Counted from the stretch's first letter, positions 21,359-24,913 are shown. The stretch is 52,709 nt of DNA from Oscillospiraceae bacterium (GCA_015065875.1 SVPK01000001.1:1-52709), one strand, 5' to 3'. Notes: generated from the sequence alone by a model not told the origin. Translations and numbers: made by a program.

Positions 21359-21387
21359 TTGACATAATGAAATACCTGTGATATAAT
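21359..21387 (+). promoter_or_regulatory. Sigma-A type promoter of the lysine operon
   Basis: TTGACA (21359-21364), 17 nt, TATAAT (21382-21387). Confidence 0.75.
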
Positions 21388-21395
21388 CACATAAC

Positions 21396-21646
21396 GATAG
21401 AGGTGCATCGCATCAAAAGTAGCTGTTGCTGATAAGCCCGCCAGGGTGCTACAGGGAAAGGGGTGCGTTGCCGAAGACGAAAAAAGGCAAAATTTCGATC
21501 TGGCAACCGAAAATAAGATTTTTGTTGCTGTCGCAGAAATGCGGAGTGCTATCTGACAGAATTTATAAGGCAAAAGCGTGCTGAAAATGCGTACTTTTTG
21601 CATGAGATTTTGGATGATAGTTGCATTTCAGCAACTGTCATTTTTT
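21396..21646 (+). promoter_or_regulatory. Lysine (L-box) riboswitch with terminator
   Basis: P1 GATAG/CTATC. Motifs AGAGGTGC, GGGAAAGGGG, TTGCCGAAG and GGAGTGCTATC. Terminator TGATAGTTGC/GCAACTGTCA plus T run at 21614-21646. Confidence 0.85.
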
Positions 21647-21695
21647 AATTTATTTTGGTGGTATATTTTTCATACTGCTACAAAGGAGAATTTTT

Positions 21696-22580
21696 ATGAA
21701 GAATACTGTTTTTACCGGTGCAGCAACTGCTATTGTAACCCCGCTTAATAAAGATGGCGTTGATTATGAAAGCTTTGCAAAACACATCGAGTGGCAGATT
21801 GAAAAGGGTATTGATGCCATTGTTGTTGCAGGAACAACAGGTGAAGGCTCAACCTTAACCGATGCCGAGCATAGAGCAGTTATTAAGTTTTGTGTTGAGA
21901 AGGTTAATGGTCGTGTTCCCGTTATAGCAGGAACAGGTTCTAACGATACCTCTTATGCCATTGAGCTTACAAAATATGCCTGCGAGGTTGGAGCCGATGC
22001 AATGCTCCTTATAACTCCTTATTACAATAAGGCAACGCAGAAGGGTATGATTGAATCCTTCCGTGCAATTGCCGATGCGTCAACCAAGCCCTGCATTCTG
22101 TATAATGTTCCCAGCAGAACAGGCTGCAACATTTTGCCCGAAACTGCTGCAGTTTTGGCAGAGCATCCTCGAATTGTTGCTATTAAGGAGGCTTGCGGCA
22201 ATATATCGCAGGTTGCAAAGCTTGCCGCTCTCTGCGGAGATAAACTTGATATTTATTCAGGAAATGATGACCAAATCGTTCCAACCCTCTCTTTAGGCGG
22301 TAAGGGTGTTATCTCGGTTCTTTCAAATATTATGCCCGCCGAAACTTCACTCATGTGCAAAAAGTATTTAGAGGGTAATGTAAGTGAGGCAACCGCAATG
22401 CAGCTTGAGTATCTTGACCTTATCGATGCTTTGTTCTGCGAGGTTAACCCGATTCCCGCAAAGGCTGCAGTTGCCGCTATGGGATTCTGCGATAACTATC
22501 TCCGTCTGCCGCTTACACCTATGGAGCCTCAGCATGAGGAAAATCTGCTTAGACTTATGCGTGAGCAGGGATTAATCTAA
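21696..22580 (+). CDS. dapA: 4-hydroxy-tetrahydrodipicolinate synthase
   Basis: ATG at 21696 follows AAGGAG. GAATAIVTPL, VVAGTTGEGSTLT and YNVPSRTG motifs. The track ORF start at 21621 lies in the riboswitch terminator. Confidence 0.92.
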   Translation: MKNTVFTGAATAIVTPLNKDGVDYESFAKHIEWQIEKGIDAIVVAGTTGEGSTLTDAEHRAVIKFCVEKVNGRVPVIAGTGSNDTSYAIELTKYACEVGADAMLLITPYYNKATQKGMIESFRAIADASTKPCILYNVPSRTGCNILPETAAVLAEHPRIVAIKEACGNISQVAKLAALCGDKLDIYSGNDDQIVPTLSLGGKGVISVLSNIMPAETSLMCKKYLEGNVSEATAMQLEYLDLIDALFCEVNPIPAKAAVAAMGFCDNYLRLPLTPMEPQHEENLLRLMREQGLI

Positions 22581-22607
22581 CTTTAAAATTTTAAGAAGGC
22601 GATTTTT

Positions 22608-23585
22608 ATGAAGCTTGCTATATATGGATATGGTAATTTAGGTCGTGGTGTTGAATGCGCTGCGCAACAAAATAGCGATACTGAACTTATCGGTGTTTTT
22701 ACAAGGCGTAATCCTTCGGATGTAAAAACTCTGTTTAATACTCCTGTATATTCTGCAGATGATATTTTGGATTTCAAAGGTAAAATTGACGTTCTTATAA
22801 TCTGCGGCGGTAGTGCTACAGATCTGCCTAAAATGACACCTGCGCTTGCTTGCGATTTCAATGTTGTTGATAGTTTTGATACTCATGCTAAAATACCGCA
22901 ACATTTTGAATTTGTTGATGCAGCCGCATATTCTAATGATACAACTGCTCTCATTTCCTGCGGTTGGGACCCCGGAATGTTTTCGCTTAATCGCCTTTAT
23001 GCTTCAGCGATTTTGCCCGACGGCAAGGATTATACCTTCTGGGGTAGAGGAGTAAGCCAAGGCCATTCCGATGCTATAAGAAGAATAGATGGCGTTATTG
23101 ATGCTCGCCAGTATACCGTTCCGGTCGAGGAAACCTTAAAGGCTGTTAGAAAGGGTGAGACCCCCGAGCTTACAACAAGACAAAAGCATATTCGAGAATG
23201 TTATGTTGTTGCCGCGGAGGGCGCAGATAAAGAGGAAATTACCCGACAAATTAAAACTATGCCTAACTATTTTGCCGATTATGATACAACCGTAACATTT
23301 ATTAGTCTTGAAGAAATGAAGCGCGACCATAGCGAGATTCCTCATGGCGGAGTTGTTATCAGAACGGGCAAAACCGGCGCCTGTGGTGAGCATAGTAACA
23401 CCATTGAGTATAGCTTAAAACTCGATTCTAATCCCGAGTTTACCGCTAGTGCGTTGGTTGCCTTCGCGAGAGCGATTTATAGAATGAATGAGCGCGGAAT
23501 TTATGGATGTAAAACCGTTTTTGATATTGCCCCGGCTGACCTTTCTCCGCTTTCAGGCGATGAGCTTCGCGCTACTATGCTTTAA
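22608..23585 (+). CDS. ddh: meso-Diaminopimelate D-dehydrogenase
   Basis: MKLAIYGYGNLGRGVE N-terminus, GWDPGMFS and RGVSQGHSDAIRRIDGV. 325 aa. Confidence 0.85.
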   Translation: MKLAIYGYGNLGRGVECAAQQNSDTELIGVFTRRNPSDVKTLFNTPVYSADDILDFKGKIDVLIICGGSATDLPKMTPALACDFNVVDSFDTHAKIPQHFEFVDAAAYSNDTTALISCGWDPGMFSLNRLYASAILPDGKDYTFWGRGVSQGHSDAIRRIDGVIDARQYTVPVEETLKAVRKGETPELTTRQKHIRECYVVAAEGADKEEITRQIKTMPNYFADYDTTVTFISLEEMKRDHSEIPHGGVVIRTGKTGACGEHSNTIEYSLKLDSNPEFTASALVAFARAIYRMNERGIYGCKTVFDIAPADLSPLSGDELRATML

Positions 23586-23596
23586 AAGGACTTTTT

Positions 23597-24913
23597 ATGC
23601 AAAACGAAAATATTTTTATTTGTGAAAACATAGGGGTTGCTGATAACGGTAATTTATCCTTTGCGGGTCAGGATACCGTTATGCTCGCGAAAAAATACGG
23701 AACCCCGCTTTACTTAATGGATGAAGACCGTATAAGAAAAATTTGCCGCACCTATATTGGCGCCGTAAAAAAAGCCTTTGGTGATAATGGTAAGGTAATG
23801 TATGCTTCAAAGGCATCATCCTTTAAGAGAATATATGAAATTATGCTCGAAGAGGGAATGAATATCGATGTTGTTTCCTGCGGCGAGATATATACGGCCT
23901 ATAGCGCGGGATATCCGCTTTCAAACGCATATTTTCATTCCAATAACAAGACCGATGAAGACATTGCCTTTGCAATGGATAAGGGTGTTGGCTATTTTGT
24001 TGTTGATAATGAGGAAGAATTGTATGCAATCGATACCGAAGCCCGCAAAAGGGGAATAAAACAGTCGATTCTCCTTCGCATAACCCCCGGAATCGACCCC
24101 CATACATTTGAGGCGGTTGCAACAGGAAAGGTCGATTCAAAATTTGGTTCGGCCATTGAAACAGGACAGGCAGAGCAAATGGTTGAAATAGCTCTCTCGC
24201 TTGAGGGTATCGAGTTATCGGGCTTCCATTGTCATGTAGGTTCGCAGGTGTTTGATTCGGATGTTTTCCTGCGTTCGGCCGATGTTATGCTTGATTTTAT
24301 TCTTGATATAAAGAATAAGTTTGGATATGTTGCAAAACAACTTGACCTCGGCGGCGGATTTGGAGTTCGTTATCTTGCATCCGACCCTGTATATTCGCTT
24401 GAGGATGTTATCTCGGAAATTGGCGATTTTGTTAATAAAAAGGTTGCAGAGCTTGGCATTGAATTGCCGATTATAGGCTTTGAGCCCGGCCGAAGCATAG
24501 TTGCCGACGCGGGAATGACACTTTATTCGGTTGGAACCGTTAAAAAGATACCTGAATTTATAAATTATGTATCGGTTGACGGCGGTATGACCGATAATAT
24601 TAGGTATGCGCTTTATGGTGCAGCATATACTCTTACTCTGGCTAACAAGGCTACAGAAAACCATAATATGCTTTGTTCGGTGGTTGGTCGTTGTTGCGAG
24701 AGCGGAGATATTATTCAAGAAAATGTTTATATGCCTGATTCCGTAACCCGTGGCGATTATCTCGCTTGTATGACTACCGGCGCATATCATTACTCTATGG
24801 CCTCTAATTATAATAGAATTGGCCGCCCTCCGATTGTTATGCTTCGCGAGGGAACCTCGTATCTCGCTGTTCGACGCGAGACTGTTGAAAATTTAATCTC
24901 TCTCGATATATGA
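23597..24913 (+). CDS. lysA: Diaminopimelate decarboxylase
   Basis: PLP-fold ODC/DapDC family. FHCHVGSQ, LDLGGGFGV, GRCCESGD and GAYHYSMASNYN motifs. Confidence 0.92.
   Translation: MQNENIFICENIGVADNGNLSFAGQDTVMLAKKYGTPLYLMDEDRIRKICRTYIGAVKKAFGDNGKVMYASKASSFKRIYEIMLEEGMNIDVVSCGEIYTAYSAGYPLSNAYFHSNNKTDEDIAFAMDKGVGYFVVDNEEELYAIDTEARKRGIKQSILLRITPGIDPHTFEAVATGKVDSKFGSAIETGQAEQMVEIALSLEGIELSGFHCHVGSQVFDSDVFLRSADVMLDFILDIKNKFGYVAKQLDLGGGFGVRYLASDPVYSLEDVISEIGDFVNKKVAELGIELPIIGFEPGRSIVADAGMTLYSVGTVKKIPEFINYVSVDGGMTDNIRYALYGAAYTLTLANKATENHNMLCSVVGRCCESGDIIQENVYMPDSVTRGDYLACMTTGAYHYSMASNYNRIGRPPIVMLREGTSYLAVRRETVENLISLDI

Follow-up and report, generated by a model that had tools for sequence, protein, structure and literature searches.

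The window analysed here, that is the whole 52,709-nucleotide (nt; 52.7 kb) stretch of DNA from an Oscillospiraceae bacterium (GCA_015065875.1, SVPK01000001.1), with coordinates counted from its first letter, contains a 5,222 base pair (bp) element (19968-25189) which interrupts the iron transporter gene feoB. Five genes are found within the element, namely a large serine recombinase gene, the three genes of a lysine and diaminopimelate (DAP) biosynthetic operon (dapA-ddh-lysA) and an open reading frame (ORF) of 63 amino acids (aa). On balance, we favour the interpretation that this is an old, vertically inherited gene-intervening element whose excision would rebuild feoB, probably in the sporulating mother cell.

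Boundaries and cargo of the feoB element

Both parts of the interrupted gene are located on the minus strand. The feoB 5′ part (25190-26599), adjacent to feoA (26604-26846, minus strand; Pfam FeoA), encodes the G domain, helical domain and first Gate domain (Pfam FeoB_N, FeoB_Cyto and Gate), while the 3′ part (19239-19967) encodes the second Gate domain and FeoB_C. In the integrated state the 5′ ORF runs on into the element, to position 24893, and inspection of the sequence revealed no ribosome-binding site belonging to the 3′ fragment itself. A 27 nt inverted repeat, with 26/27 complementary positions (96%), is located exactly at both element ends; it is the longest in the region, and the chance expectation for such inverted-repeat pairs is approximately 7e-8 in 5.6 kb. 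Its arms (19972-19998 and 25157-25183) form part of the two predicted attachment (att) arms, one on the feoB 3′ side (19968-19998), which overlaps the recombinase stop codon, and one on the feoB 5′ side (25157-25189). The symmetry centre of the repeat is an AA dinucleotide common to both junctions (19966-19967 and 25188-25189), which represents the predicted crossover site.

When the two feoB parts are joined in silico at the shared AA, an uninterrupted 712-codon FeoB is obtained, collinear with intact homologues, and the junction reads NGRFPTL, as it does in the intact FeoB of relatives. The reconstructed attB likewise matches the intact feoB of relatives, the predicted junctions after excision being GATATTAGTGTTGGGAAACGACCATTACATGG for attB and GCCATAGCTTTGTTGCGGTAAAGCACAACAAAACTATGGC for attP. 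Independent assemblies from four other samples contain the same integrated arrangement, with 99.8-100% identity. One contig (L003), in which the feoB 3′ part appeared to be missing, was rejected as a variant, its DNA being collinear with the window and the difference one of gene calling.

The operon carried by the element is preceded by a sigma-70 promoter (21359-21387, plus strand), composed of TTGACA and TATAAT hexamers with a 17 nt spacer and an upstream TG, which is the sole site with a 12/12 consensus match within 19900-25300 and is conserved among relatives. A lysine riboswitch aptamer follows (L-box, RF00168; 21390-21559, plus strand), for which the covariance model gave a full-length match (model positions 1-182; Rfam score: 78.1 bits, gathering score: 30). 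The predicted expression platform is an intrinsic terminator in the leader (21612-21643, plus strand), identified as a hairpin and T run in a terminator scan, and in the minimum-free-energy fold of the leader a 12 bp hairpin and U run come after the aptamer. Downstream on the same strand are dapA, encoding 4-hydroxy-tetrahydrodipicolinate synthase (21696-22580; 294 aa; Pfam DHDPS; TIGR00674: 340.7 bits, cut-off: 206), the mechanically called ORF of which begins earlier, at 21621; ddh, encoding meso-diaminopimelate dehydrogenase (22608-23585; 325 aa; Pfam DAPDH_C; TIGR01921: 418.5 bits, cut-off: 180.6); and lysA, encoding diaminopimelate decarboxylase (23597-24913; 438 aa; also matched in Pfam; TIGR01048: 409.8 bits, cut-off: 297.9). 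All three products thus score above the NCBIfam equivalog cut-offs. A terminator hairpin (24920-24939, plus strand), with an equivalent in the sister species described below, follows lysA, and the A and T runs which flank it suggest that it may act bidirectionally. The preliminary description of this region had presented the operon as a self-contained, riboswitch-controlled unit without dapB, and each of its components, from the promoter to the final terminator, was recovered here; a domain search furthermore found DapB neither within the element nor among the larger annotated ORFs of the window, confirming that the gene is absent from the element.

The -10 hexamer of the operon promoter is embedded in a near-perfect palindrome, TGTGATATAATCACA (21373-21387), which is also found in some of the native-locus relatives whose promoter regions were examined (L095 and L098). 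The recombinase gene begins only 41 bp upstream on the opposite strand, and the palindrome may represent a candidate operator or divergent promoter.

Relatives and the origin of the cargo

Relatives of the window fall into three states, namely those with the operon at a native locus, those with the element in feoB and those from which the recombinase has been deleted, and in all three the same lysine riboswitch precedes dapA. In the first state, feoB is intact with nothing inserted and the feoA-feoB-mnmA-oxidoreductase synteny of the window is retained (L012 and L013), while the riboswitch-dapA-ddh-lysA operon is located between a xerC-like gene and bipA (L094, L095, L098 and L099). The contigs bearing a native operon (L095) and an intact feoB (L012) derive from one genome, GCA_054268235.1. 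The native operon divergently adjoins the gene for a 329 aa tyrosine recombinase (e.g. L098 7667-8656), which resembles XerC/XerD but scores below the equivalog cut-offs (214 bits vs 335).

The second state is represented, in addition to the window, by a sister species (L005-L010 and L097; GCA_017482035.1), which carries the same five genes at the same feoB codon, and in which the element was observed on nine contigs, the largest exceeding 200 kb. Between the window and the sister species, the recombinases share 52% amino acid identity, DapA 90%, Ddh 87% and LysA 85%, and the products of the flanking genes 61-89%. The element-side att arms are nearly identical in both species, whereas the adjoining sequence has diverged. 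Two sister-species scaffolds (L006 6376-8713 and L005 1030-2468) differ from the other contigs, one having ddh frameshifted and fused to lysA and the other a split feoB 5′ part; the genes concerned are intact in L007, L008 and L097, which points to assembly error or strain-level decay in the two odd scaffolds.

In the third state, found in L096 (GCA_045659535.1), the promoter, riboswitch and intact operon lie approximately 60 nt beyond mnmA, and no equivalent of window positions 19222-21355, comprising the feoB 3′ part and the recombinase gene, is present. An intact, riboswitch-controlled operon has been kept in all three lineages of the second and third states, including the one without a recombinase, which is an argument that the cells need this copy.

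The element and the native locus are homologous exactly from 21359, the start of the -35 hexamer, to 24901-24915, at the lysA stop codon, and these limits suggest that a clean promoter-to-stop cassette was relocated. In a phylogeny of DapA, Ddh and LysA, the operons of the second and third states form a clade (96% bootstrap support) which is sister to the native-locus clade (100%), and the two together are separated from the outgroups with 100% support. On these alignments the cargo is the lineage's own operon, moved from the native locus, and the tree points to a single relocation event. As L096 is nested within the clade of relocated operons and lacks the feoB 3′ half, its arrangement reflects a later deletion rather than the ancestral state. 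When BipA of the native-locus relatives was compared with metagenome contigs, the best match shared only 85% identity, while the four native-locus lineages are 98% identical to one another, suggesting that the native-locus clade is absent from that metagenome collection; the bipA neighbours which were found in the collection lack the operon.

These comparisons bear on several further points raised in the preliminary description. Its view of the operon as genuine cargo of a recombinase-bounded insert within feoB is upheld by the relatives with the same synteny, in which feoB is intact and the insert is missing. The lack of dapB, by contrast, had been presented as a property of the element, yet in the closest relatives (L094, L095, L098, L099, L014 and L015) the operon at the native locus is likewise of the dapA-ddh-lysA type, while more distant Clostridia relatives have dapA-dapB-ddh-lysA, and the missing gene is thus inherited. 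The arrangement named there as one that would make the recombinase a later arrival, with the operon beside feoB-flanking genes and no recombinase, does exist in L096, but as a secondary deletion. Base composition, which was to distinguish the element from its flanks, divides the element itself: the recombinase gene (G+C content: 33.7%) and the 63 aa ORF (37%) appear foreign-like, whereas the cargo, at 42-45%, is host-like, as are the neighbouring genes (42-45%). Of the comparison between enzyme and host phylogenies which was also proposed, the enzyme side yielded the cargo clade described above, but the host marker tree contains no resolved splits.

Recombinase, selection and the case for excision

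The recombinase gene (19980-21317, minus strand) encodes a 445 aa protein with Resolvase (Pfam; e-value: 9.3e-33), Recombinase and Zn_ribbon_recom domains, and the catalytic residues R11, S13, D84, R85 and R88 are invariant in an alignment of 44 sequences. A sequence search against solved structures gave an alignment limited to the catalytic domain, while a Foldseek comparison matched the SPbeta, Bxb1 and phiC31 integrases over their full length (E: 1e-14 to 1e-15), with SPbeta integrase structures (9dxh and related entries) as the top matches. The nearest characterised relatives are integrases of Clostridia phages (43% amino acid identity), and the nearest other recombinases, at approximately 50% identity, occur in unrelated contexts. 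A coiled coil of approximately 96 aa, present in relatives of 541 aa, is deleted in the window enzyme, in a 94% identical relative (L011) and in the 52% identical enzyme of the sister species, and in the AlphaFold2 model (mean predicted local distance difference test score: 77.9) only helices of 11 and 7 residues are located between the zinc ribbon and the C-terminal hairpin. A precise coiled-coil deletion is also observed in a 456 aa, 50% identical serine recombinase (P0043; L181-L185), suggesting that this loss is recurrent in the recombinase family; the element encoding it, which is unrelated to the one in feoB, carries helix-turn-helix, sigma-70-like and AAA_14/DUF4143 genes.

In serine integrases, the coiled coil is set into the zinc-ribbon domain, controls direction and is what directionality factors act on. 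It has been removed experimentally from a Listeria phage integrase, which then needed no directionality factor for intramolecular attL x attR recombination, while intermolecular attP x attB recombination was inefficient (PMC5499577). With the motif lost, excision would be favoured without a classical directionality factor and reintegration would be expected to be poor. By this analogy, the window recombinase is probably biased towards one-way excision, which would suit a vertically inherited element, with control resting on expression.

The fifth gene of the element is a 63 aa acidic ORF (plus strand), which together with a CATATAGT box and a GAGGTG ribosome-binding site occupies 24958-25175, its ATG being located at 24984 and its stop codon (25173-25175) inside the att arm. 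The box, ribosome-binding site and start codon are kept in the sister species, while the coding part has diverged. Among 1.84 billion representative proteins, relatives were found in only two other clusters (92% and 48% identity), in both of which the protein is likewise 63 aa long and has NIFLP, which the att arm encodes, as its last residues. It has no match in Pfam or PHROG. The ORF is a real, element-specific gene, and a role as an accessory or directionality factor is plausible by analogy with the small factors SprB and GirX (PMC5499854, PMC5595907). That the protein might be the detached coiled coil of the recombinase was also considered and rejected, profile comparison giving a probability of 0.4%.

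A further conserved sequence, a 20 nt block (GAATAGCATAATTATAGGAC; 26875-26894, minus strand) located upstream of feoA at a distance of approximately 30 nt, has hardly changed in an alignment of four lineages in which the surrounding intergenic DNA has diverged. The block holds a CATA-type -10 box and an AT-rich palindrome, ATAATTAT, and possibly represents a promoter -10 element or the operator of a metal-responsive regulator.

Synonymous sites are saturated in every gene compared between the window and L097, the cargo included (synonymous divergence, dS: 1.4-2.9), and the two elements therefore share no recent ancestor. Over this span the joint feoB frame has remained open in both species (711-712 codons, no stops), and the ratio of nonsynonymous divergence (dN) to dS relative to the sister species is 0.08 for the 3′ part of feoB and 0.12 for the 5′ part. 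In element-bearing pairs, dN of feoB is 1.38 times that in intact-feoB pairs, and dN of the uninterrupted mnmA gene 1.47 times; since the excess in feoB is matched by that in mnmA, selection on feoB is not relaxed. The recombinase has a dN/dS ratio of 0.14 in comparison with its 94% identical relative. To judge from these rates and from the conservation of the att arms, what is observed is long-term purifying selection on both feoB halves, on the recombinase and on the att arms. A permanently broken feoB would have decayed, and we therefore infer that the composite gene is expressed, for which excision would be required.

The history that we favour would begin with an ancestor in an Acutalibacteraceae-like group of Clostridia, in which the lineage's own dapA-ddh-lysA cassette moved out of the xerC-like/bipA locus and landed between two foreign pieces of low G+C content, the recombinase gene and the 63 aa ORF, in a unit that now sits in feoB. 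In the integrated, germ-line state feoB would be broken and the operon functional, being switched on at low lysine and terminated by the riboswitch at high lysine, while dapB, as in relatives, would be encoded at another genomic site. For excision, the recombinase would pair the att sites, cut at the AA dinucleotide, free a 5.2 kb circle and rejoin feoB in frame (NGR-F-PTL), and control would lie in the timing with which the recombinase and the 63 aa protein are produced. Dividing cells would lose a circle that carries DAP/lysine genes and does not replicate, which makes a terminal cell the most likely setting, specifically the mother cell during sporulation, by analogy with skin, SPbeta, vfbin and gin.

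The window itself harbors spoIIGA (Pfam Peptidase_U4), directly followed by sigE, which scores above the NCBIfam equivalog cut-off (39469-41023), and SipL is encoded in close relatives. The host lineage thus carries sporulation genes and, although uncultured, is a candidate endospore former. Furthermore, one feoAB operon of C. difficile is sigma-K dependent (PMC3789822), which provides a precedent for a mother-cell-specific feoB. On these grounds we infer a link between the element and sporulation. In the sigE region, sigG is not adjacent to sigE, its place being taken by a flavin mononucleotide (FMN) riboswitch and a transporter S component. A more far-reaching version can be put forward only tentatively, and we hold it to be rather less than probable, namely that in this clade the element carries the only DAP/lysine operon although it is developmentally excised, that feoB is always broken in the heritable genome and intact only in the mother cell, that the naturally coiled-coil-less recombinase is a host-domesticated, one-way excisase, and that capture of an essential operon has long locked the element into the germ line.

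Several observations weigh against excision in a vertically inherited element. In the sister species, the recombinase gene begins with ATG ATG behind a GAGG ribosome-binding site (L097 8690-8730), while the corresponding codons in the window (21290-21330) and in L011 are ATC GTT; the window lineage thus lacks a canonical start, only a GTG inside the ribosome-binding site or the non-canonical ATC being left, which suggests that very little recombinase is translated. Neither a sigma-E nor a sigma-K promoter could be assigned, as the CATA-type -10 boxes upstream of the 63 aa ORF and of feoA are without a properly spaced -35 (ATA or AC). When the 712 aa FeoB was compared with 5.8 billion clustered proteins, no intact FeoB with more than 71% identity was found, the best matches (71% and 67%) belonging to other species, a search which says nothing about excision that is rare or confined to one cell type; in viral contigs, the attP junction pattern TTTGTTGCGGTAAAGCACAACAAAA had 0 matches. 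Loss of feoB is possible, as the L096 lineage demonstrates. Finally, the host tree, built from MnmA and the FAD (flavin adenine dinucleotide) oxidoreductase, is a star in which no split exceeds 52%, and vertical descent is argued mainly from the cargo tree.

Some of the same features could be read as those of a horizontally mobile, feoB-specific mini-element which entered separate lineages fairly recently, the operon serving as accessory cargo or as a device against loss and the constraint on feoB dating from a long intact history. The foreign-like base composition of the recombinase, its affinity to Clostridia phage integrases and the presence and absence of the element among about equally distant lineages are in keeping with mobility, and a DAP/lysine cargo would penalise loss of the element. 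Gene content and Pfam and PHROG comparisons, however, identified no transfer, replication, mobilisation or phage genes in the 5.2 kb, and the recombinase is without the coiled coil needed for efficient intermolecular integration. Its nearest other relatives are distant and differently placed, the cargo is as saturated in dS between the two species as the flanking genes, leaving no room for a recent common element, and the cargo clade, which includes the recombinase-less L096, is sister to the native-locus clade and not nested within it. Separate recent insertions fit poorly with this saturated divergence, with the monophyly of the cargo and with the lack of transfer functions, and we regard them as unlikely. 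Decay offers another account, in which the element is an immobilised relic that no longer excises, feoB being dead or producing two polypeptides and the remaining function being lysine/DAP synthesis from a new address. This would explain why no excised allele was seen among the clustered proteins, why the window recombinase has lost its canonical start codon, why L096 kept the operon after losing the recombinase and feoB 3′ half, and why some sister-species scaffolds have a split feoB 5′ half or frameshifted ddh. A relic is nevertheless difficult to reconcile with a joint feoB frame of 711-712 codons held at a dN/dS ratio of approximately 0.1 across saturated dS, under constraint equal to that in intact-gene lineages, with a recombinase under purifying selection whose catalytic residues are intact, with att arms that are conserved where the adjoining sequence is not, and with a feoB 3′ fragment that has no ribosome-binding site of its own; we consider it quite improbable.

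Excision may also be accepted but assigned to growing or stationary cells, in which a reversible cycle of excision and reintegration ('active lysogeny') would turn FeoB on and off according to iron, lysine or stress. FeoB is not encoded by a classical sporulation gene, the AT-rich palindrome upstream of feoA is a possible site for a Fur-like repressor, and large serine recombinases are able to catalyse both directions, the coiled-coil-less Listeria enzyme having been reported as 'promiscuous' between attP x attB and attL x attR (PMC5499577). Against a switch of this kind, cell division would dilute out a 5.2 kb circle that does not replicate, and intermolecular reintegration by a coiled-coil-less enzyme is inefficient (PMC5499577). 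If the cargo were the only DAP/lysine operon, each failed reintegration would be lethal or produce an auxotroph. Moreover, neither species yielded an assembled empty-site allele, despite good sampling of the sister species. We therefore give a reversible switch little credence, and return to developmental excision from a vertically inherited element as the preferred interpretation.

Comparison with known elements and further window features

The skin and SPbeta elements are prophages or prophage remnants, 14-134 kb in size. Skin, located in sigK of B. subtilis and C. difficile, and SPbeta, in spsM, are excised in the mother cell by a large serine recombinase, rebuilding a late mother-cell gene, and the forespore germ line keeps the element; in SPbeta and C. 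difficile skin a small sporulation-expressed factor sets the direction of recombination (PMC5025042, PMC5499854, PMC4191935, PMC5595907). They differ from the window element in their phage-derived cargo, sporulation-gene targets and full coiled coil. The fdxN element of Anabaena heterocysts, which is removed from a gene in a terminally differentiated cell by the XisF serine recombinase, belongs to a different phylum and developmental programme, and to our knowledge carries no biosynthetic operon. XisF is among the best NCBIfam matches of the window recombinase, with a score (121.7 bits) far below the cut-off (375).

A close parallel in organisation is the gin element, found in gerE of Bacillus cereus ATCC 10987, with its recombinase GirC and factor GirX, which is likewise a non-phage gene-intervening element with a serine recombinase and a small factor, the latter only a candidate in the window element, and has att sites in which a 27 bp imperfect inverted repeat flanks a predicted AA cleavage dinucleotide (PMC5595907). 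Its host is a spore former, in which precise excision of gin restores the interrupted ORF (PMC5595907), while for the window element the join is predicted. The gin element contains 31 genes, among them three recombinase genes and no housekeeping operon, compared with five genes in 5.2 kb and a host DAP/lysine operon in the window element; furthermore, gin interrupts a sporulation regulator and is near-identical between strains, indicating recent transfer, whereas the window element interrupts an iron transporter gene and appears to be of ancient vertical descent. The window recombinase also differs from that of gin in lacking the coiled coil. In this respect it has the same domains as the coiled-coil-deleted Listeria integrase, with catalytic, recombinase and zinc ribbon domains but no coiled-coil arms; the Listeria mutant is, however, a laboratory construct with weak, promiscuous activity (PMC5499577), whereas the loss observed here is natural, common to recombinases which are 52% identical, and under purifying selection. 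The cargo itself corresponds to the ordinary L-box dapA-(dapB)-ddh-lysA operons of Oscillospirales and other Clostridia in promoter, riboswitch, gene order and enzyme families, but in the closest relatives these occupy one fixed site, flanked by a xerC-like gene and bipA, and form no recombinase-bounded unit. The window element is thus best filed as a variant of the sporulation-type gene-intervening elements (skin, SPbeta, vfbin, gin and yin), from whose known members it differs in four ways, namely its feoB target, its relocated housekeeping operon, its apparently long vertical persistence and its natural coiled-coil-less recombinase.

Known sporulation-linked rearrangements involve prophage-like or accessory elements in sporulation genes, and if our interpretation is correct, the target in this instance is a metal transporter. 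The use of a core biosynthetic operon of the host as cargo would then provide a natural example of an element made impossible to lose. The coiled coil governs direction in all serine integrases studied, yet the window enzyme is naturally devoid of it and is nonetheless under selection, making it a candidate natural excision-only enzyme on which current models of directionality could be tested. For uncultured gut Clostridia in general, gene calls annotated as 'feoB pseudogene' may conceal functional split genes.

Additional genes and regulatory sequences can be observed elsewhere in the window. A gene for an extracytoplasmic function-type sigma factor (32069-32662) overlaps the start of a 487 aa serpin gene (32655-34118), the product of which has its serpin domain at residues 125-487, behind a 124-residue N-terminal extension; this pair is conserved beside uvrC in L012 and L097. 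On the minus strand, the region 3142-8076 encodes a cohesin-domain protein (465 aa) adjoining a 1,177 aa protein with Listeria-Bacteroides repeat domains, and genes for a leucine-rich-repeat protein of the BspA type and for a fragment of a Ser/Thr kinase are located nearby (9658-11338). The FMN riboswitch (41382-41496; 119.5 bits) is located upstream of the gene for an energy-coupling factor transporter substrate component (41556-42224), and an S-adenosylmethionine riboswitch (42284-42365; 70.1 bits) precedes metK.

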